The position numbers and the translations under genes are program-made. From Patescibacteria group bacterium (GTDB taxonomy: Bacteria > Patescibacteriota > Minisyncoccia > Phycocordibacterales > Phycocordibacteraceae), in assembly GCA_038064695.1 (NCBI GenBank), contig JBBTSO010000001.1, forward strand, positions 85,932-149,931: a DNA stretch of 64,000 nucleotides, read 5' to 3'. The stretch's first letter is position 1, and each line of letters opens with the position of its first letter. The notes beneath the pieces were generated by a model that searched no databases, was not told where the DNA came from, and saw nothing but the letters and a program-made list of their open reading frames with translations. Below, one piece after another: positions 9,170 to 20,489 of the stretch.

Positions 9170-10402
9170 CTAGTTAAACCCTAGTGCAGCGAGTTCTTCG
9201 CGGACGACGGTGGCGTCGTCCCACGGGGTTTTTTTGCCACCCGCCTCCATAATGTAGGGATCGGTGCCTTTTCCTGAAATTAAAACCGCGTCATTTGCTT
9301 TAGCGAGCGTGAGTGCGTGGTGAATAGCTTCGCGACGGTCCATGACGATGGTGGGCGTTCGTTTCATCTCGGTCGTCATATCATTCACTATTTTTTCAGG
9401 GTCTTCGTCGTATGGGTCTTCATTGGTGAGAATAACGGTGTCGCAATGTTCATCGGCAATTTTCCCCATGAGTGGGCGCTTCCACGTGTCGCGTCCGCCG
9501 CCGGTGTTGCCGAGCACACAAATTTTTCTTTGTGGGTAGGCGCTGTAGAGGGCCTCGAGCGAGTCAGGAGTGTGAGCGTAGTCCACGATAACTTTGAACG
9601 GTTGGCCCGCCTCAATAGGTTCTACCCGTCCGCGGACTTGCGGCAAAGTTTTGAGAGCCTGGAGCGCTGCTTCATGAGGAACACCGAACGCTTCTACCAT
9701 TTTTAATGTTGCGAGAGCATTTAGATTATTGAATGTGCCTGAAAGCGGCGTGAGCGCTGGCATCCCTGACGCCTCTTCATCTCTAAAAGAAATGCGCGTG
9801 GGAACCTGAGCGTTTTCAAAAAAGATACGCACGTTTTCATCGCTCGCGTTTGCTACCAACACGCGGTGTTTTTTGGGGGAGCGCTCCAACTCGTGTACAA
9901 TGGCGCGTTTCGCGGCAACGTAGTTTTCAAAAGAACCGTGACGTTCTAGGTGTTCGCGCTGAATGTTGGTAACGATAAGTCCGTCCAAGTTTAAATAGCG
10001 ATGCCGTTCATCAAGCGTCCCTTCGGAAGTTATTTCAACGATTGCGTGCGTGGCCCCTTCGCGCTTCGCGCGAGCGAGAAAGAAGTGGAGGAACCCTCTG
10101 CCCTGCATAGTCATTTTAAAGCGATTGGGCTCTTCTCCTGACGGGGTTGCAAATCGAATGGTTGAGGCAAGTGCCGTTTTGTACCCCGCATGGGTGAATA
10201 CGACATAGAGCATATCGGCGACGGTTGATTTTCCCTTAGTGCCGGTTACTCCAATCACGGTGAGGTGTTTTGTGGGCGTGCCGTAGTAGTGATAGGCGAA
10301 CAGGGAAAGTGCCTGGTGGTACGGTGCGCGTAGCATATGTACCAGCCACTCGGGCATTACTTTTTTTAAAATCTTTGCAAGAAAAGAAACAATACTATAC
10401 AT
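9170..10402 (-). CDS. Mur ligase family protein (MurE/MurF-like UDP-MurNAc-peptide ligase)
   Basis: ATP-binding GVTGTKGKST and DYAHTPDSLEALY (Mur ligase middle domain). Short for a Mur ligase at 410 aa. Confidence 0.6.
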   Translation of the reverse strand: MYSIVSFLAKILKKVMPEWLVHMLRAPYHQALSLFAYHYYGTPTKHLTVIGVTGTKGKSTVADMLYVVFTHAGYKTALASTIRFATPSGEEPNRFKMTMQGRGFLHFFLARAKREGATHAIVEITSEGTLDERHRYLNLDGLIVTNIQREHLERHGSFENYVAAKRAIVHELERSPKKHRVLVANASDENVRIFFENAQVPTRISFRDEEASGMPALTPLSGTFNNLNALATLKMVEAFGVPHEAALQALKTLPQVRGRVEPIEAGQPFKVIVDYAHTPDSLEALYSAYPQRKICVLGNTGGGRDTWKRPLMGKIADEHCDTVILTNEDPYDEDPEKIVNDMTTEMKRTPTIVMDRREAIHHALTLAKANDAVLISGKGTDPYIMEAGGKKTPWDDATVVREELAALGFN

Positions 10403-10404
10403 GC

Positions 10405-10977
10405 TTATTTGGTGCCTGAGAGGAGTCGTAGCGCCTCGCGGATGCGGTCTTCCGCGCGCGTGAGTTCTTTCGGTATCGCGCGCGCGGTATCGCGCGCCTC
10501 TTTGAGTGAGTACCCCAAGCTGACCAGCGCGTCCACCACTTCGCCATCCGACGCGCCACTGCCCGCGCTCCCCGGTGTTGCCACTACTTTTTCTTTCAAC
10601 TCCAGCACAATTTTTTCAGCTGTTTTTCGTCCAATACCAAACGCTCGCGCCAAGACGCTCGCGTCGTTTCCTGAAATAGCGCTTTCAAGTGTTTGGATGT
10701 CGGCACTGTTTAACACGGCAAGTGCCGAGCGGGGGCCAATGCCGGAAACCGTTAAGAGTAGTTCAAACCACTGTAACTCCTCCTTACTTTCAAAGCCGTA
10801 GAGGTCGTGAGAATTTTCTCTAACCGCAAGATGAGTCCATAATGAAAGCTCAACCCCTTCGCGGGCGCTGGCAAGTGTAGGGGCAAGAACCCGCACACGG
10901 TAGCCCAACTGACCCGCGGAAATGATGACCGAGTCTCGAATGGCTGAGAGTACGGTGCCGTGGATATGTCCGATCAT
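10405..10977 (-). CDS. ruvA: Holliday junction DNA helicase RuvA
   Basis: MIGHIHGTV N-terminus, OB fold, HhH region LLTVSGIGPRSALAVL and C-terminal domain III. Confidence 0.85.
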   Translation of the reverse strand: MIGHIHGTVLSAIRDSVIISAGQLGYRVRVLAPTLASAREGVELSLWTHLAVRENSHDLYGFESKEELQWFELLLTVSGIGPRSALAVLNSADIQTLESAISGNDASVLARAFGIGRKTAEKIVLELKEKVVATPGSAGSGASDGEVVDALVSLGYSLKEARDTARAIPKELTRAEDRIREALRLLSGTK

Positions 10978-11049
10978 AAAGACAGTATAGAGCACTCCGC
11001 ACTCATCATTCAGTGCCAGTGCGGTTCAAACAAAAATGCTGATTTCCTT

Positions 11050-11381: not shown

Positions 11382-11831
11382 TTATGCGTGTGAGAGTTTT
11401 CTCCCTCCCAGCATTTTTTTTACTATAGGAACGCCAAATTTAAATCCTACCCCCGCTAGCGCTGTTGCTACTCCCGCCGCCAAAATTGTTTGAGGCATGT
11501 TTGATTTCTGCTTCATAGGAACATACTCGCCCTCCGCGTCGCGTACGTATCCCTGCGCGCGTGCCCACTCGTCATTTTTCATTTGTCCTTCTTCAATATA
11601 ACTTTGGTATTGTCGATTGCCTGCGAGGTCAGTTTTATACCCGAGCTCATCAGTAAAAGGGGAGCGAGTAGGTTTTGCTGCTGGATCAGCATCGCCACTT
11701 TCAAGGTCTATTCCAAGCACTTCACGCACCTCTTCTAAGTTTGAATAAATCGCTACGATTGCTGCTACTGCCGCAACAAGCATTCCACCCATTAAAATAA
11801 AGTTAGGTCGTTCTTTTTTTGTTTCTGCCAT
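11382..11831 (-). CDS. hypothetical membrane protein
   Basis: Two predicted TM helices. No recognised domain. Confidence 0.35.
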   Translation of the reverse strand: MAETKKERPNFILMGGMLVAAVAAIVAIYSNLEEVREVLGIDLESGDADPAAKPTRSPFTDELGYKTDLAGNRQYQSYIEEGQMKNDEWARAQGYVRDAEGEYVPMKQKSNMPQTILAAGVATALAGVGFKFGVPIVKKMLGGRKLSHA

Positions 11832-11915
11832 AAAAGTAAATTTAAACGCGCCAATAAAAGCGCTATTTGAGCATTATATACTTAAATTCTTATTTTGTCA
11901 AATATTCTGTAAGAC

Positions 11916-12866
11916 CTATTTTGAAAGGGTAGTGATGGGGCGGCTTTGGAGAATATAGAGCGTGCCGTTTTCAATTGCCCACTCAATGTCTTGTGGCCTT
12001 CCGTAGTGCTTCTCAATCATTTCTATAACGTCGGCAAGGTGAAGAATATGTTCATCGGCGAGTTTCTGGGCCTCTCTTTTTTCAGAAGGAATGTCTCTCC
12101 ACTCGCTGTCTCCTGTCTGTTTTTTGTAAAGTCCCTTTTCTTGAGAGGCAATATTTTTTTCAATAATTTCTCGTGGTTGTTTGGAAATCACGTACGCGTC
12201 TGGGGTCACGTGCCCTCCCACCACTGCTTCACCTAAACCCCACGCTCCTTCTATGAATAGGTGATTATGGTCTTCCGTAACGGGGTCTACGGAGAAGGCG
12301 ACACCTGAGGCGTCGCTCTGCACCATTTTTTGTATTACCACTGAAACAGAAATGTCGGTTTGACCAAGATTTTTCTCGTAGCGATAAAAAATAGCGCGTG
12401 GGGTGTAGAGCGATGCCCAACAGCGGCGCACATTCTGAAGCACGTGTTCTTTTGTGGTGTTGAGGTACGTATCGAGTTGACCTGCCCACGCAGCGTCGGG
12501 GCCATCTTCAACGGTTGCGCTGGAACGTACCGCCACAAATTCTGCGTTGAGTGCTCCAAACGCATCCATTATTTCGTTCGCCATCTCTGTAGGAATGGGG
12601 TGGGTATTATTTAAAATGCGCTCCTGAATTTTTTCTGACGCGAGGTCCACGCTCGCCGAGTTTTCAATGGAAACAGGCTTTAAAAGTTCTTCAATTTCTG
12701 CTTTGAGCGACGTTGAGGTAATAAAATGTTCAAAGGCTCCTGCCACCACCACAAACCCTCCTGGAACAGGAATTCCCGCACGGGTCATTTCACCAAGCGA
12801 TGCGCCTTTTCCCCCGGCGATGTTTGCGTCGTCTTTTCCGAGCTCTTGGAAGCGTTTAGTCCACAC
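11916..12866 (-). CDS. PEP-utilizing enzyme, N-terminal ATP-grasp (PPDK_N) domain protein; split pyruvate-phosphate dikinase / PEP synthase, part 1
   Basis: GGKGASLGEM...GIPVPGGF start and the YILQSRPITT C-terminal hallmark of the PEP/pyruvate-binding domain. The N-terminal 72 codons of the listed ORF look like a spurious extension. A GTG at 12866 is the proposed start, but it is uncertain. Confidence 0.7.
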   Translation of the reverse strand: MWTKRFQELGKDDANIAGGKGASLGEMTRAGIPVPGGFVVVAGAFEHFITSTSLKAEIEELLKPVSIENSASVDLASEKIQERILNNTHPIPTEMANEIMDAFGALNAEFVAVRSSATVEDGPDAAWAGQLDTYLNTTKEHVLQNVRRCWASLYTPRAIFYRYEKNLGQTDISVSVVIQKMVQSDASGVAFSVDPVTEDHNHLFIEGAWGLGEAVVGGHVTPDAYVISKQPREIIEKNIASQEKGLYKKQTGDSEWRDIPSEKREAQKLADEHILHLADVIEMIEKHYGRPQDIEWAIENGTLYILQSRPITTLSK

Positions 12867-12958
12867 AATGATACAGATTGTATCGTATGAGCTCCCGAGA
12901 CGCCATCTACCGAGTGAACCAATACTCTTGTACACTGTGGATACAAGATCTGGTTTGT

Positions 12959-14254
12959 ATGAAGATTGCTCACATTCACGCGCGCGAAGTTTTTGATTCG
13001 CGAGGCACACCCACTTTAGAGGCAGAAGTAACCACTGAACACGACATAGTGGGGCGCGCCATAGTTCCTTCAGGTGCTTCAACAGGTACCCATGAAGCTC
13101 ATGAGCTCCGAGATAATGATGAAAAACGCTTTGGGGGAAAGGGAGTATTGAAAGCGGTTAGGCACGTGAACGAAGACATCGCGCGAACGCTCATCGGGAT
13201 GCCCATAGATGCGCAGGAAACCATTGACGAGGCACTGATTACGCTTGACGGGACTCCGAATAAAAAACGCCTCGGGGCGAACGCGCTTCTCGGGGTGTCG
13301 CTTGCGACCGCTCACGCCGCAGCGAAAGAAAAAAACATTCCTCTCTATGAGTACGCGAGTCTTCTTTCAGAAGAAAAACGCGAGCCGGTGTTGCCGCTTC
13401 CGCTCATCAATATTTTAAATGGGGGCGCGCATACGCTCTGGGAATCTACCGACATTCAAGAGTTTATGATTGCTCCCGTGGGAGCTGACTCGTTTTCGCA
13501 CGCGCTTCAGATGAGCGCGGAAATTTTTCACGCGCTCAAAGGCGTCTTGAAAGAAGCGGGATACGGGACGGGAGTGGGGGACGAGGGAGGGTTTGCGCCT
13601 GCGCTTAAAGACGGTAACGAAGAAGCGTTTGCACGAATTGCCGAAGCGGTCGGGAATGCAGGGTACGTGTTGGGAAGCGACGTGGTGTTTGCGCTTGATA
13701 GTGCCGCTTCAGAATTTCATCGTGGAGAATCGTACGCGCTTCCGCTTGCGGGCAGAACTCTCACGAGCGATGAGATGATTTCGTGGTATCGCTCACTTTC
13801 AAAAAAATTCCCCATTGCTTCTCTTGAAGATGGGCTTGCAGAAGGTGATTGGGATGGGTGGAGACTCCTTACTCGTGAACTAGGGGACACGATGCAACTT
13901 GTAGGAGATGATCTTTTGGTTACCAACACCACGTTTTTAAATCGGGCAATAGAGGAAAAGGCAGGGAACGCTATTTTAATAAAGGTGAACCAAATAGGAA
14001 CACTCACTGAAACTATTCGTGCCGTTGATAGTGCGCACCGCGCAGGGTGGCGCACCGTTATGTCGCATCGTTCAGGAGAAACAGAGGACACTACCATCGC
14101 ACACCTTGCGGTAGGGTTGGGGTGCGGGCAGATAAAAACAGGGTCGCTCAGTCGTTCTGACCGTGTCGCGAAATACAACGAACTGCTTCGTATTGAAGAA
14201 CGTTTAGGAGACCGCGCAGTATTTGCGGGAAATGTTTTTCTTACTAATAACTAA
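12959..14254 (+). CDS. eno: enolase
   Basis: [38 protein letters not shown] and [10 protein letters not shown]. Start at ATG 12959. Confidence 0.95.
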
Positions 14255-14280
14255 CCACTAGCCACTAAACACTAATTTCT

Positions 14281-14898
14281 ATGGCACATCTTTTTTTAAT
14301 GCGACACGGCATGAGCGAGTGGAACAAGCTCGGACTCTGGACTGGGTGGACTGACGTTGATTTGGCTCCGGAAGGGAGAAATGAAGCACGTGCCGCTGCA
14401 AAGTTTTTTAAAGATGTTGCAATTCAGAGTGTACACACTTCTACACTGAAACGCGCGCAACAGACTTTTGCTGAAATTCAAAAAGAACTTTCGTGGCATG
14501 ACCTTGAGCCGTGTGTCTCACCGGCATTAAACGAGAGAAACTATGGGGTTTACACGGGACTCGTAAAAGAAGAAGTGCGAAAAAAGGTAGGGGAGGAGGA
14601 GTATAAAAAAATTAGACGCGGTTTCTCCCATCCCATTCCTGAAGGAGAGTCACTCGCAACCGTGTTTGAGCGCATTAGCTGTTATTTTGAAGATCATGTT
14701 CGCCCTGAACTTCGTCATGGGAAAAACGTGCTCATCGTGGCTCACGGCAACTCGCTCCGCGCACTCGTCAAATACTTAGAAAACATTGACGACGAATCTA
14801 TTGTTGACGTGCATATAGAAACGGGGGAAGTGTACCGGTATGAATTTGATTCGCGCGGACTCTTGGTGGGGAAGCAGATACTAAAAAACGCCGCGTGA
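14281..14898 (+). CDS. gpmA: 2,3-bisphosphoglycerate-dependent phosphoglycerate mutase
   Basis: LMRHGMSEWN (RHGxSEWN motif) and a histidine phosphatase fold. Confidence 0.85.
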   Translation: MAHLFLMRHGMSEWNKLGLWTGWTDVDLAPEGRNEARAAAKFFKDVAIQSVHTSTLKRAQQTFAEIQKELSWHDLEPCVSPALNERNYGVYTGLVKEEVRKKVGEEEYKKIRRGFSHPIPEGESLATVFERISCYFEDHVRPELRHGKNVLIVAHGNSLRALVKYLENIDDESIVDVHIETGEVYRYEFDSRGLLVGKQILKNAA

Positions 14899-14912
14899 GC
14901 GGTGGCGCGTGT

Positions 14913-16211
14913 TTAACGTTTCGCTTCAACGTCGCCGATGATGTTGCGGGTTGCAATAACTGCGTCAGGACTCACCGATACCGAAGTGATACCCCACTCC
15001 ACCAACTTTTGAGTGAGGTCAGGGTAGACCGAAGGCGCTTGCCCGCAAATAGAAACAGGAACACCTCTCTTTTTGCATGTGGTAATAATACGCTCCAGTG
15101 ACCACAATACGGCTTCATTTCGTTCATCAAATAGTTCTGCAAAACGCTCGTTGTCGCGATCAACCCCGAGGGTGAGTTGGGTGAGGTCGTTTGAACCAAT
15201 AGAAACGCCGTCAACACCAACATCTAAAAACTTGTCTAACAAAATAACATTGGAAGGAAGCTCAGCCATCATCCAGATACCCGCCTTTCCTATATTTTTT
15301 TCTTTGAGAAGCGCTTTCACTGTGCGCAGTTCTTCGGGAGTGTGAATGAAAGGGATCATGATGCGCACGTTATCGAATATTTTTTCAACCCGATGTAGCG
15401 CTTCTGCTTCAAGGTCAAATACATCCTTATCCACTGAGTAGCGGAATGCTCCACGAAATCCAATCATCGGGTTTTCTTCCACGGGCTCGTACTTTTCACC
15501 GCCTTCCAAGTCGCGGTATTCGTTTGTTTTAAAGTCAGTGAGGCGATAGGTAACAGGGCGGGGATGAAATGCTTTTGCAAAGATAGAAATTTTTTCAGCG
15601 AGGGTTGCGGTAAATTCTTCTCCCTTTCCTTCTTCAATCATAAAGCGGGGGTGGCGCCCAAGGTGCGCTACGATAAACTCTGCGCGAAGTAATCCTACGC
15701 CGTCAACGTTCATTTTTGCGACTTCTTCGGCGCGTTCGGGGTCAGCGAGGTTCACGTACACGTTCGTTTTTGTTTTTGAATGACGCATTGTTGCGGCAAG
15801 GTTGGTATCGGGAGTAATAGTTTGCTCTCCCGCATAGACTTTTCCTGTCGTTGCGTCAACGGTTATCATTTGGCCGTCTTTTAAGACTTCAAGCGCGTTG
15901 CCTGTTCCCACAATGCAGGGGATACCAAGTTCGCGAGACACAATTGCCGCGTGACATGTGCGCCCACCCTTGCAAGTAATAATTGCTGCCGCTTTTTTCA
16001 TGAATGGCACAAAGTCTGGCGTGGTCATATCGGTCACCAAAATAGACCCTTCGGTGAACTTTATATGAGCTTCCTTCGCATCTCTGATGATAATGACTTT
16101 CCCGGTTGCTGAACCACGACTTGCGGGAGACCCTTTCACGATCACGTCAGATGGTGTGTCCATAATTTTTTGTAGTATGGCGTTCATTATACCTAACAAG
16201 TGAATAAACAC
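14913..16211 (-). CDS. PEP-utilizing enzyme, phosphohistidine swivel domain plus C-terminal TIM barrel; split PPDK / PEP synthase, part 2
   Basis: GGRTCHAAIVSRELGIPCIVG (mobile His domain) and SIGSNDLTQLTLGVDRDNE (PEP-utilizers C-terminal domain). Confidence 0.8.
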   Translation of the reverse strand: MFIHLLGIMNAILQKIMDTPSDVIVKGSPASRGSATGKVIIIRDAKEAHIKFTEGSILVTDMTTPDFVPFMKKAAAIITCKGGRTCHAAIVSRELGIPCIVGTGNALEVLKDGQMITVDATTGKVYAGEQTITPDTNLAATMRHSKTKTNVYVNLADPERAEEVAKMNVDGVGLLRAEFIVAHLGRHPRFMIEEGKGEEFTATLAEKISIFAKAFHPRPVTYRLTDFKTNEYRDLEGGEKYEPVEENPMIGFRGAFRYSVDKDVFDLEAEALHRVEKIFDNVRIMIPFIHTPEELRTVKALLKEKNIGKAGIWMMAELPSNVILLDKFLDVGVDGVSIGSNDLTQLTLGVDRDNERFAELFDERNEAVLWSLERIITTCKKRGVPVSICGQAPSVYPDLTQKLVEWGITSVSVSPDAVIATRNIIGDVEAKR

Positions 16212-16480: not shown

Positions 16481-17107
16481 TTATTTTTCAGCCGCAAGAA
16501 ACTTTTGTTCCCATAACTCCATACGTGTCGGAATCTCATCAATGAGTCCTCTCTTTCTTAATATTCCATAAAAGCCTCGATCTATGGTACAAAGTTTCCC
16601 TCGGGAAATACCCTCATAGTGTTCATGATAGTAAGCGAGAAGCTCTTGGTCAGACATCGAAACCCAGTCACGATACGCAGTAGGAATCTCGTCAATTAAA
16701 TTGCGGTTTCGTAGTGTTTGATAAAAACTAGGATCAATGTCTTGTAGTTTTCTCCTCGATAGTCCCTCGTAATGTTCTTTGTAGTAGGCGAGCATCTCGC
16801 TGTCGCTCATTGTTTTCCATGAACGATATTCGCGCGTTTCTTCAGCAGCTTCTCGAGAACGGCCTCCTTCACGTTCGCGAATGCGTCTCTCATCCTCGCC
16901 TTCTCCTGCAGCGCGGTCAGTACCAAGTCGCACGTCGTCTTCACTTCCTGAATCGTTAGCGGTCAGCACTATGCCTATAGCTACAGCCGCAATACTCATA
17001 CCAAGCAAAATCACACCAGTATTGTCTTTGGTTTGTGAGGTATTATCCACACCAAAATAGAATAGCGCTGACTCGGTATTACGCATAGTTCTAAAACCTC
17101 TCAACAT
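16481..17107 (-). CDS. hypothetical membrane-anchored protein with an internal 45-aa tandem duplication
   Basis: N-terminal TM helix. Two copies of MSD(S/Q)E(M/L)LAYY(K/H)EHYEG(L/I)SR.KL..ID..FY..LR.R.LIDEIPT. Confidence 0.4.
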   Translation of the reverse strand: MLRGFRTMRNTESALFYFGVDNTSQTKDNTGVILLGMSIAAVAIGIVLTANDSGSEDDVRLGTDRAAGEGEDERRIREREGGRSREAAEETREYRSWKTMSDSEMLAYYKEHYEGLSRRKLQDIDPSFYQTLRNRNLIDEIPTAYRDWVSMSDQELLAYYHEHYEGISRGKLCTIDRGFYGILRKRGLIDEIPTRMELWEQKFLAAEK

Positions 17108-18567: not shown

Positions 18568-19479
18568 ATGAAAAAACAAATAGGACTCGTTGGCTTGGGG
18601 AAGATGGGCAAGGGAATTAGCCTTCACTTACACGAACAAGGGTGGGACGTAGTAGGGTTTGATGTGTCGCCTGACGCTACTAAAGCAGTAGCTGATGCGG
18701 GGGTAAAAACAGTTGCGTCTCTCGCTGAAATGGCTAAGCAGCTTTCTGCACCACGCGTAGTGTGGGTTATGTTGCCCGCAGGATCTGTAAGCGAAGAAGT
18801 GTTTCTCGGTAAACAAGGGTTACGTGAACTTTTATCTGCAGGTGACGTAGTCATTGATGCGGCGAATGCATTTTATGAAGACTCAATGAGGAGGGCAAGT
18901 TCTTTTGAAAAAGAAAACATTTCATTTATTGATGTAGGATTTTCTGGAGGGCCACAGAGCGCTCGTACAGGAGCGTGCATTATGGTAGGGGGGGTTTCAT
19001 CTGTCGTATCTTCGCTCGCATCGCTTTTTGATGCACTGACAGTAAAAGAGGGCTGGGCACATTGCGGGTCTTCAGGGGCTGGTCATTTTACTAAAATGGT
19101 GCACAACGGAATTGAATACGGCATGATGCAGTCTCTCGCGGAGGGGTTTGCGGTTTTGCGGGAGTCTCCTTTTAACTTAGATTTAGTCACTATTGCTAAC
19201 CTGTATAACCATCGCAGTATCATTGAGTCGCGTCTTGTTGGGTGGGCGGAGAGTGGGCTTGAGCAGTTTGGTATTGATTTGGAAGAAGTATCAGGGACCG
19301 TGGCTCACACAGGAGAGGGGAAGTGGACAGTGGAAACGGCAAAAAAACTTGGCGTCCCCGTGCCGTCTATTGAGCTGGCGTACAATTTCCGCGTAGAGTC
19401 AGAAAAAAATCCTTCCTACATCGGTAAAGTGCTCTCCATGCTCCGTAACCAGTTTGGGGGACATGTCGCAAAAAAATAA
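18568..19479 (+). CDS. 6-phosphogluconate dehydrogenase (decarboxylating)-like NAD(P)-binding protein, short form
   Basis: Rossmann start MKKQIGLVGLGKMGKGI and a 6PGDH-type C-terminal helical domain. About 300 aa, like YqeC/Gnd-like proteins. Confidence 0.7.
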   Translation: MKKQIGLVGLGKMGKGISLHLHEQGWDVVGFDVSPDATKAVADAGVKTVASLAEMAKQLSAPRVVWVMLPAGSVSEEVFLGKQGLRELLSAGDVVIDAANAFYEDSMRRASSFEKENISFIDVGFSGGPQSARTGACIMVGGVSSVVSSLASLFDALTVKEGWAHCGSSGAGHFTKMVHNGIEYGMMQSLAEGFAVLRESPFNLDLVTIANLYNHRSIIESRLVGWAESGLEQFGIDLEEVSGTVAHTGEGKWTVETAKKLGVPVPSIELAYNFRVESEKNPSYIGKVLSMLRNQFGGHVAKK

Positions 19480-19481
19480 GT

Positions 19482-20489
19482 ATGGACATCGCGCGTATTG
19501 TTCAGCACTGGCCCGTTGAATTTTCTGCCGAAGCGCTCGGGAGTGCGAAACGTCCGACGACGGGGCTTTTAAATAAAACATTCTTGCTGCGGGAAGCGGG
19601 GGTTTTGTACGTGTTGCAGTCGGTACACCCGGCAGTGGCGTTTGACGGTTCGTTTAAAAACTATGACAACGTGACGCAATTTTTAAAATCAAAAGGATTT
19701 CAAACACAAACCTTCGTGCGCACCAATTCGGGAGCGCTGTGGCATGAAGAAGAAGGAGCGCGTTGGCGCCTACTTGTTGGGGTTGAGGGTGTCACCCACG
19801 AGTTCACGACCGACCCCGCGCTCGCACGGGAGGCAGGAAGTTTTTTAGGGAGTTTTACCGACGTGCTCGCTTCGTACCCTCACGCGCTTGATGAGGGGCG
19901 CCGGTCATTTGTGTATGAAGGAGAAATTGAAAGACTTGACCTCTACCACGATGAACTTATGCACGACCCTGACCCGCGTATGGGGGAGGCTGCCGAGCTG
20001 CTGCTCCGTGAATTGCCGCACCTGTTGTTGCCGAAAGATTTGCCCGAGCGCATTATTCACACCGATCCAAAAATTTCTAATTTTCTTTTTTCCTCTGACG
20101 GTCGTGCGGTTTCAATGATTGATCTAGACGCGCTTCAGGTTTTGAGCCCACTCTACGACCTCGGCGATGCTATTCGTTCGTGGTGTGGGCAAGCGGAAGA
20201 CGACCCGAACAACACCTTTAATAGTGGAATATATGAAGCGTTGGTAAAAGGGTACACAGGAGCTCTAAAAACAAGTCCACTTTCTGAAAGGGAAGTGGCG
20301 CTTATTCCAAACGCTGCAAAGTTGGTGATGCTAGGGCTCACGACACGATTTTTAAATGACTACATAGACGATTCATATTTTGGGTGGGATGCCACTCGGT
20401 ATACAAGTCGCAAAGACCATAACAAGGCGCGAGTTATGGGGCAGTTGTCACTCTATAAAACATTCGAGAAGTTTCAGGCGAATATTTGA
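19482..20489 (+). CDS. phosphotransferase family protein (APH / homoserine kinase type II-like)
   Basis: Catalytic loop IIHTDPKISNFLF and metal-binding MIDLDAL. Kinase-like fold. Confidence 0.55.
   Translation: MDIARIVQHWPVEFSAEALGSAKRPTTGLLNKTFLLREAGVLYVLQSVHPAVAFDGSFKNYDNVTQFLKSKGFQTQTFVRTNSGALWHEEEGARWRLLVGVEGVTHEFTTDPALAREAGSFLGSFTDVLASYPHALDEGRRSFVYEGEIERLDLYHDELMHDPDPRMGEAAELLLRELPHLLLPKDLPERIIHTDPKISNFLFSSDGRAVSMIDLDALQVLSPLYDLGDAIRSWCGQAEDDPNNTFNSGIYEALVKGYTGALKTSPLSEREVALIPNAAKLVMLGLTTRFLNDYIDDSYFGWDATRYTSRKDHNKARVMGQLSLYKTFEKFQANI

Follow-up and report, generated by a model that had tools for sequence, protein, structure and literature searches.

Can a phosphoenolpyruvate (PEP) synthase function when its ATP-binding domain is encoded apart from the rest of the enzyme? 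The question is raised by a locus of a Patescibacteria group bacterium, found in a 64,000-nucleotide stretch that we analysed as a whole (assembly GCA_038064695.1, contig JBBTSO010000001.1, positions 85,932 to 149,931; hereafter the window, numbered from its first letter). The initial annotation, made from the sequence alone, had proposed that a dikinase is split there into two minus-strand open reading frames (ORFs), with genes for enolase and a phosphoglycerate mutase between them on the plus strand, and the ORF list and domain scans confirm all four genes in place. We conclude that the two minus-strand genes probably encode, one subunit each, a heteromeric pyruvate,water dikinase (PEP synthase or PpsA, EC 2.7.9.2) that would work in trans. 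Such a two-subunit form is characteristic of a group of Patescibacteria.

The gene that we call the N-half (11916–12866, minus strand, from a GTG start at 12866 to the stop codon at 11916 inclusive) encodes a stand-alone ATP-grasp subunit of 316 residues, whose Pfam content is PPDK_N alone (PF01326, E 3e-102, profile positions 2–313 of 328). The C-half (14913–16163, minus strand) encodes a phosphohistidine swivel domain (PF00391, E 5e-30) followed by a PEP/pyruvate TIM barrel (PEP-utilizers_C, PF02896, E 9e-67). Its longest ORF reaches a GTG at 16211 (432 residues), which had first been taken as its beginning; the stop at 14913 stands, but the true start is most likely the ATG at 16163, giving 416 residues, because homologues begin there and a conserved TATAAT sits inside the longer ORF. 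The two products are identical to MEK7613368.1, which PGAP names 'PEP/pyruvate-binding domain-containing protein', and to MEK7613371.1, a 'putative PEP-binding protein'; the source of both genes is a metagenome-assembled genome (MAG). The two genes share a strand, with 2,046 bp between them, and their order is permuted, the C-half being transcribed first and the N-half lying downstream, so they are not a single gene interrupted by an insertion.

The space between them is occupied by eno (12959–14254, plus strand), encoding an enolase of 431 residues (Enolase_N and Enolase_C in Pfam; TIGR01060 equivalog at 593.7 bits, cut-off 300), and by gpm (14281–14898, plus strand), encoding a short-form 2,3-bisphosphoglycerate-dependent phosphoglycerate mutase (dPGM) of 205 residues (His_Phos_1; TIGR01258 at 182.7 bits, cut-off 81.7) that matches the 206-position short dPGM model NF002339 end to end. 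The eno gene is divergent from the N-half, with which it shares a spacer of 92 bp, and gpm is convergent with the C-half, the stop codons being 14 nt apart. The two halves, enolase and dPGM form a small lower-glycolysis cluster. Searches of the window with tblastn found no second copy of either half, and a Pfam scan of 39 window ORFs revealed housekeeping genes only, with no pyruvate kinase and no carboxylase genes. Neither approach found in these 64 kb a single-chain ppsA or ppdK, the presence of which elsewhere in the genome had been named at the outset as an argument against a split enzyme.

Do the two halves add up to a whole enzyme? On the 798-position NCBIfam profile of PpsA (NF005057), the N-half covers positions 8–339 at 347.8 bits and the C-half positions 353–791 at 529.1 bits. 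Each falls below the cut-off of 598 bits, which accounts for the generic names given by PGAP, and the sum of 877 bits lies above it (the cut-off of TIGR01418 is 739.75). A definition of PpsA as one polypeptide scoring above the equivalog cut-off therefore does not describe this locus. Structural templates give the same tiling: residues 3–315 of the N-half align to residues 6–363 of the PEP synthase 8a8e, and residues 5–415 of the C-half to residues 377–797 of 8a8e and to 392–826 of the PEP synthase 9dae. Compared with 67 fused full-length PpsA from metagenomes, 3–13 linker residues (median 9) are absent between the halves. The N-half ends in …SRPITTLSK, and in these alignments the predicted break lies precisely within the flexible linker by which single-chain enzymes connect their ATP-grasp domain to the swivel. 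Among the columns that are near-invariant in PpsA (at least 97% identical among fused enzymes), 133 of 139 are kept.

The catalytic residues are also complete. The N-half has those of the nucleotide and Mg site, namely the Lys of GGK (K20, 12807–12809), the Arg of VRSS (R114) and the Glu, Gln and Arg of DIEW...LQxRP (E295, Q307 and R309, the last at 11940–11942), and all five are invariant in the 120 stand-alone homologues listed and in 68 of 68 fused PpsA. K20 and R114 are the counterparts of Lys22 and Arg117 in the rifampin phosphotransferase (RPH) RPH-Lm, which matter by mutagenesis (PMC4844700). In the C-half, the swivel motif GGxT(C/S/A)H reads GGRTCH, holds His71 (15951–15953) and aligns to GGRTSH of 8a8e, and the TIM barrel carries the expected two Arg, Glu, Asn-Asp pair and catalytic Cys (R160, R207, E301, N325-D326 and Cys373, the last at 15045–15047). 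None of these residues varies among the 40 stand-alone C-halves or the 68 fused proteins, except D326, which is Asp in 39 of the 40 and in all 68. Alignment to PpsA and PPDK, suggested by the initial annotation as a check, thus covers the full length of PpsA apart from the linker, with every catalytic residue examined intact. The same comparison separates the two enzymes. On the PPDK equivalog TIGR01828, whose cut-off is 843 bits, the halves reach 75.4 and 120.4, far from a full-length PPDK, and among PDB matches PPDK chains are found at E 1e-12 to 1e-20, compared with 1e-70 to 1e-113 for PEP synthases. The much higher profile scores on PpsA than on PPDK are a sequence proxy for the predicted chemistry, in which water and not Pi would accept the gamma-phosphate.

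Both genes are under purifying selection. Relative to orthologues in three related loci (L001, L106 and L004), the proportion of nonsynonymous differences (pN) in the halves is 0.18–0.25 and the proportion of synonymous differences (pS) is saturated at 0.72–0.86; enolase is equally constrained in the same genome pairs (pN 0.22–0.24). All 120 N-half matches listed are stand-alone PPDK_N proteins, nearly all of 312–350 residues, and the named ones come from Patescibacteria. For the C-half, the best matches are stand-alone proteins of 410–430 residues, followed by PpsA of 750 residues from Chloroflexi/Dehalococcoidia at 60–64% identity; stand-alone proteins with the same termini make up 40 of the 120 C-half relatives listed.

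Is the same split found in related genomes, as the initial annotation proposed to ask? The identical layout (C-half and N-half on one strand, with gpm and eno between them on the other) recurs in L001, L106 and L110, which come from different samples and show 64–83% amino-acid identity. Other orders are also found. In L112 a FAD-linked oxidase, the N-half and the C-half follow each other, the halves being separated by a 71-nt spacer with a genuine stop codon; in L109 the C-half precedes the N-half by a single base; in L111 the N-half is followed by a PEP carboxylase (PEPcase_2), an unknown gene of 333 residues and the C-half; and in L004 an aminotransferase and a PEP carboxylase stand between the N-half and the C-half. 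The N-half is found 0–3 kb from a TIM-barrel C-half in eight of the ten C-half loci sampled, in at least four gene orders. Two sets of PEP-metabolising genes thus lie between the halves depending on the lineage: eno and gpm, or PEP carboxylase with or without an aminotransferase. When metagenomes were scanned with the C-half, nearly all loci obtained carried fused PpsA (70 loci), which we used as comparators and not as split relatives. In six of these metagenome loci (L033, L034, L036, L037, L038 and L040) a single-chain ppsA is directly followed by eno on the same strand; linkage of ppsA to eno is therefore not confined to lineages with split genes.

The sister lineage offers a different metabolic context. 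A FAD-linked oxidase resembling D-lactate dehydrogenase (FAD_binding_4 and FAD-oxidase_C) precedes the halves in its three loci (L004:8266-15066, L111:108-6636 and L112:1123-5237), and in two of them (L004 and L111) the halves bracket the archaeal-type PEP carboxylase, with or without the aminotransferase. This suggests a module leading from lactate to pyruvate, PEP, oxaloacetate and aspartate.

Short promoter-like elements accompany each half. A −10-like TACAAT hexamer (12877–12882, minus strand) lies in the spacer between eno and the N-half, 10 nt upstream of the start codon of the latter. In the alignment of the window with L001, L106 and L110, TACG-TACAAT and the position of the start codon are invariant, though the rest of the spacer has diverged. 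Its position implies that the N-half mRNA would have a very short leader or none, and be almost leaderless. Upstream of the C-half, a candidate promoter with a −10-like TATAAT (16186–16191, minus strand) lies 22 nt from the ATG at 16163, inside the ORF that starts at the GTG at 16211, and TAnAAT is kept at an equal distance in the same four loci. As far as such putative elements can be read, each half seems to be served by a promoter of its own in the window's lineage. The two genes are in any case separate ORFs with their own starts, stops and promoter-like elements, as one would ask of genes for two subunits.

How could two such subunits work together? Domain content, completeness, intact catalytic residues, purifying selection and the recurrent linkage of the halves are observed; from these we infer physical association, phosphotransfer in trans and the substrates, and propose the following cycle, which builds on the swivel mechanism of PpsA, PPDK and RPH (PMC4844700). 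The free ATP-grasp subunit of 316 residues would dock transiently on the swivel domain of the 416-residue subunit, where His71 would be pyrophosphorylated from ATP; it would keep the beta-phosphate, and the gamma-phosphate would be lost to water and released as Pi. The swivel would then return to its own TIM barrel and phosphorylate pyruvate to PEP, with Cys373 as the acid/base. Run in reverse, PEP, AMP and Pi would give pyruvate and ATP. By the mechanism of PpsA and PPDK, a C-half alone could do no more than exchange phosphate between PEP and pyruvate (PMC4844700), and net catalysis therefore needs an ATP-grasp partner. Pyruvate kinase is found in only about a third of genomes of the Candidate Phyla Radiation (CPR), and PEP synthase has been proposed as a substitute (PMC7304191). 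The eno and gpm context fits either the glycolytic or the gluconeogenic direction; the oxidase, PEP carboxylase and aminotransferase of L004, L111 and L112 suggest PEP synthesis there.

Several observations weigh against a dedicated pair. A C-half is found with no PPDK_N gene within 8 kb in two loci, L107, where it follows gpm and eno encoded on the opposite strand, and L108, where it stands alone. Alignments with homologues reveal no docking extensions at the new termini of either half. With a conserved −10-like element ahead of each, the two would be separate transcription units in the window's lineage. The search for a single-chain ppsA or ppdK, or for a pyruvate kinase, covered 64 kb of the genome. 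The remaining points concern the N-half itself. In pairs of fused PpsA the identity of the N-domain tracks that of the C-part (0.547 ± 0.038 when the latter is 0.55–0.60, and 0.583 ± 0.034 when it is 0.60–0.65), and the window N-half reaches only 0.446 and 0.448 against fused PpsA N-domains in these bins. It shares with all stand-alone N-halves 17 clade-specific substitutions, such as ASFAGQ to AAWAGQ. Finally, its clade is dominated by proteins of RPH architecture and by ATP-grasp genes lying beside arrays of swivel genes, so that a dedicated PpsA role of the N-half is not guaranteed.

In an exhaustive search among 50%-identity representatives, the best matches of the N-half (54–62% identity) are mostly proteins of 550–1,800 residues. 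Thirteen of the 16 representatives scanned combine PPDK_N, an unknown middle part and one to three swivels, which is the architecture of RPH, and a TIM barrel is missing from all 16. In bootstrapped neighbour-joining (NJ) trees, these representatives and all stand-alone N-halves form one clade (100/100) that excludes the 14 N-domains sampled from fused PpsA. The interior of this Patescibacteria-wide ATP-grasp clade is poorly resolved: the N-halves of the window, L110, L001 and L106 group with a support of 99/100, which becomes 63/100 once the 50% representatives are added. A first NJ tree had suggested that the N-halves linked to swivel arrays are a derived monophyletic group, which we dropped when its bootstrap with more loci was 6/100. 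The N-half is not simply a PpsA N-domain that was cut off, and two histories would fit the data: either ppsA underwent fission, after which the liberated subunit changed more quickly and found later reuse, or the native N-domain was displaced by an ATP-grasp domain from RPH-like dikinases.

The swivel arrays occur in many Patescibacteria MAGs (L007-L020, L024 and L114; for example L008:2066-9190), where a lone PPDK_N gene, 49–58% identical to the window N-half, lies beside one to five tandem paralogues of about 475 residues. Each of these consists of an unannotated domain of about 370 residues, here called X, and a C-terminal phosphohistidine swivel. Clustered at 90% identity, this X+swivel family numbers more than 3,100 clusters and spans Patescibacteria, Woesearchaeota and Margulisbacteria; its sole annotation is 'PEP-utilizing enzyme'. 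An AlphaFold2 model of a member has a predicted local distance difference test score (pLDDT) of 92.2. In a Foldseek comparison it matches rifampin phosphotransferase from end to end (E 2.5e-13, TMq 0.52–0.54), and its other PDB matches cover the swivel only. From this model, the X+swivel proteins look like split RPH-like dikinases without an ATP-grasp domain of their own that share one. Up to about ten swivel domains surround one ATP-grasp gene. In a 'swivel island' of Paceibacterota (L113:1-18935), a single PPDK_N gene (10001–10996) has at least eight flanking genes with ten PEP-utilizers swivels, including a three-swivel protein of 1,218 residues and a helix-turn-helix protein fused to a swivel. 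Two His_Phos_1 genes and a gene for a low-molecular-weight phosphatase lie in the island as well; a kinship of the former with the window gpm was considered and dropped, as there is no detectable similarity. The array-linked genes invite a wider, tentative and rather doubtful hypothesis, that Patescibacteria, some DPANN and Margulisbacteria have a combinatorial dikinase system in which a free ATP-grasp subunit, the N-half, is a hub charging many swivel clients in trans, the PpsA C-half being one of them, and that the split arose by replacement of the N-domain and not by simple fission. If this is true, the window N-half couples ATP to PEP/pyruvate and to other phosphorylation targets.

How do the alternatives to a dedicated pair fare against this evidence? 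Decay, listed as an option by the initial annotation, would make the halves non-functional remnants of a ppsA broken by rearrangement. CPR genomes are reduced, with patchy pathway genes (PMC7304191), PGAP names neither product PpsA and each half is below the equivalog cut-off, all of which would suit such remnants. Yet neither half has frameshifts or internal stops, all the catalytic residues survive, as do 133 of the 139 near-invariant columns, pN is far below pS and equals that of enolase, stand-alone relatives with the same termini make up 120 of 120 (N-half) and 40 of 120 (C-half) of the matches listed, and a promoter-like element is conserved upstream of each half. Given also the tiling of PpsA and the conserved linkage, we reject decay, which is highly improbable and effectively refuted already. 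A split created by a mis-joined or inverted segment, conceivable since the source is a MAG, has a next to negligible probability: three other independent assemblies of diverged relatives (L001, L106 and L110) show the same order and orientation, two of them with the same flanking synteny (S20, RuvA and Mur ligase), there are no flanking repeats around the eno-gpm block, and the end of the N-half and the beginning of the C-half coincide with the termini of the stand-alone homologues listed. A mobile element or invertible segment around eno and gpm was considered as well and set aside, as we found only short chance repeats, and Rfam gave tRNAs only.

The chief rival is that there is no dedicated pair at all. 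The ATP-grasp protein would then be a general charger, in trans, of RPH-like swivel clients, and the PpsA C-half one client or none; in the extreme form, the C-half would act alone like Enzyme I, autophosphorylated from PEP. The N-half relatives beside one to five tandem X+swivel genes, the single PPDK_N gene of L113 among at least eight swivel-domain genes, and the confident models of X+swivel proteins with their full-length match to rifampin phosphotransferase all suit it. So do the best 50%-cluster representatives, which are PPDK_N-X-swivel fusions without a TIM barrel, the excessive divergence of the N-half relative to the C-half, and locus L109, which has an extra swivel-only protein of 175 residues besides its adjacent halves; the Enzyme-I core architecture of the C-half (157 bits on TIGR01417) suits the extreme form. 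We nonetheless regard this explanation as unlikely. The tblastn searches found no other swivel, X-domain or RIF-BD-like gene in the window, the N-half stays within 0–3 kb of the C-half in eight of the ten loci through at least four gene orders, N-halves of the window type form their own clade (99/100), and a C-half cannot turn over unless it has an ATP-grasp partner. The idea that a stand-alone PPDK_N is used as in RPH-like proteins, raised by the initial annotation, thus holds for the relatives, given their RPH architecture and swivel arrays, but finds no support at this locus, whose 64-kb window contains no such client. One role does not preclude the other: an N-half shared among clients could also act in PpsA. 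The functional two-subunit dikinase, also proposed there, is the option that gains support: PpsA is tiled except for the linker, its catalytic residues are invariant, selection equals that on enolase, and linkage persists through several gene orders.

Other genes near these loci deserve mention. A perfect sigma-70 consensus (TTGACA-17-TATAAT, 12/12; 11873–11901, minus strand) stands right after the N-half stop and would drive an ORF of 149 residues (11382–11831, minus strand) with hydrophobic stretches at both ends and no match in Pfam or NCBIfam. An unannotated gene of similar size (151–153 residues) is found at this position in L001, L106 and L110. Upstream of the C-half, a protein of 208 residues (16481–17107, minus strand) without any family match carries, after a hydrophobic stretch, a motif of about 45 residues (W..MSD.E.LAYY.EHYEG.SR.KL..ID..FY..LR.R.LIDEIPT) repeated twice in tandem. 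About 2.4 kb beyond the C-half start codon, a short gene resembling 6-phosphogluconate dehydrogenase (303 residues) and an APH-family phosphotransferase follow each other (18568–20489, plus strand), a pair that is ordinary pentose-phosphate context in CPR. Next to the stand-alone C-half of L108, a RimK-type ATP-grasp gene (PF08443, E 7e-53) precedes the C-half (L108:6988-9233). We considered it as a substitute for PPDK_N and dropped it, as it is an ordinary RimK as far as its sequence tells; its presence there is probably a coincidence.

A split PpsA in CPR is described in none of the papers reached by full-text search, though CPR papers mention PEP synthase. The two-gene enzyme, as yet undescribed, is a variant of a known one that comes as little surprise, since fission at a flexible linker is unremarkable in reduced genomes and there is biochemical precedent. 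One consequence concerns annotation. Neither half reaches the PpsA cut-off, pipelines therefore give generic names, and metabolic reconstructions of CPR genomes can miss or miscount the step between PEP and pyruvate, a step that matters because pyruvate kinase was found in so few of these genomes (PMC7304191). The split thus bears on how metabolism is annotated in a very large set of organisms. For enzymology, a natural PpsA with an untethered ATP-grasp domain would be a ready system for the study of swivel docking and phosphotransfer in trans. From the evolutionary point of view, the halves stay linked while the intervening genes of PEP metabolism differ, and the reuse of the same ATP-grasp clade with RPH-like clients points to a larger modular dikinase family.

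Comparison with known systems places the locus closest to single-chain PpsA (NF005057, TIGR01418; structures 8a8e, 9dae and 2ols). The three domains, their fold families and the catalytic residues are shared, the C-half is 60–64% identical to the C-part of the 750-residue Chloroflexi PpsA, and the summed profile score passes the cut-off. Unlike in these enzymes, the ATP-grasp domain is here a separate polypeptide, about nine residues of the linker are missing, the genes stand in permuted order with the C-half upstream and eno and gpm antisense between the halves, and the N-half, with its 17 clade-specific substitutions, is more diverged than expected. The enzyme I of the phosphotransferase system (PTS) resembles the C-half in having a swivel histidine domain and a PEP-binding TIM barrel (TIGR01417 at 157 bits; 2hro, E 8e-30), but the C-half lacks the HPr-binding subdomain and scores far below the cut-off of 341.7, compared with 529 bits on PpsA.

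Schmeling et al. in 2004 reportedly described the domains of phenylphosphate synthase, with the part similar to the N-terminus of PpsA as a separate subunit. The alpha and beta subunits of phenylphosphate and phenylphosphoamidate synthases (Pps/Pas; Thauera aromatica, Desulfatiglans anilini) are the precedent for a separately encoded ATP-grasp subunit: they form a water dikinase in which the ATP-binding subunit acts in trans on the phosphohistidine subunit (PMC7500099). In contrast with our locus, their histidine subunit binds phenol or aniline and has no PEP-utilizers_C TIM barrel, a third, CBS-domain subunit stimulates the reaction, and they serve aromatic catabolism and not central metabolism. 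The phenol- or aniline-binding subunit and the phenylphosphate carboxylase operon that define them are absent here, where the neighbours are eno and gpm and the window ORFs scanned include no carboxylase. RPH (RPH-Lm; 5fbs, 5fbt and 5hv1) illustrates that the swivel need not adjoin the ATP-grasp domain in sequence (PMC4844700). It shares with the locus the ATP-grasp type of the N-half (207 bits to 5fbs; 282.8 bits on NF041857) and the swivel chemistry, but the N-half scores higher on PpsA (347.8 bits) than on the RPH models, and the window contains no RIF-binding-like domain and hence no RPH set of ATP-grasp, RIF-BD-like and C-terminal swivel domains; the partner here is a PEP/pyruvate TIM barrel. 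Judged by these comparisons, the locus is neither PPDK nor RPH nor Enzyme I, and it has every domain and residue of PpsA for which we looked.

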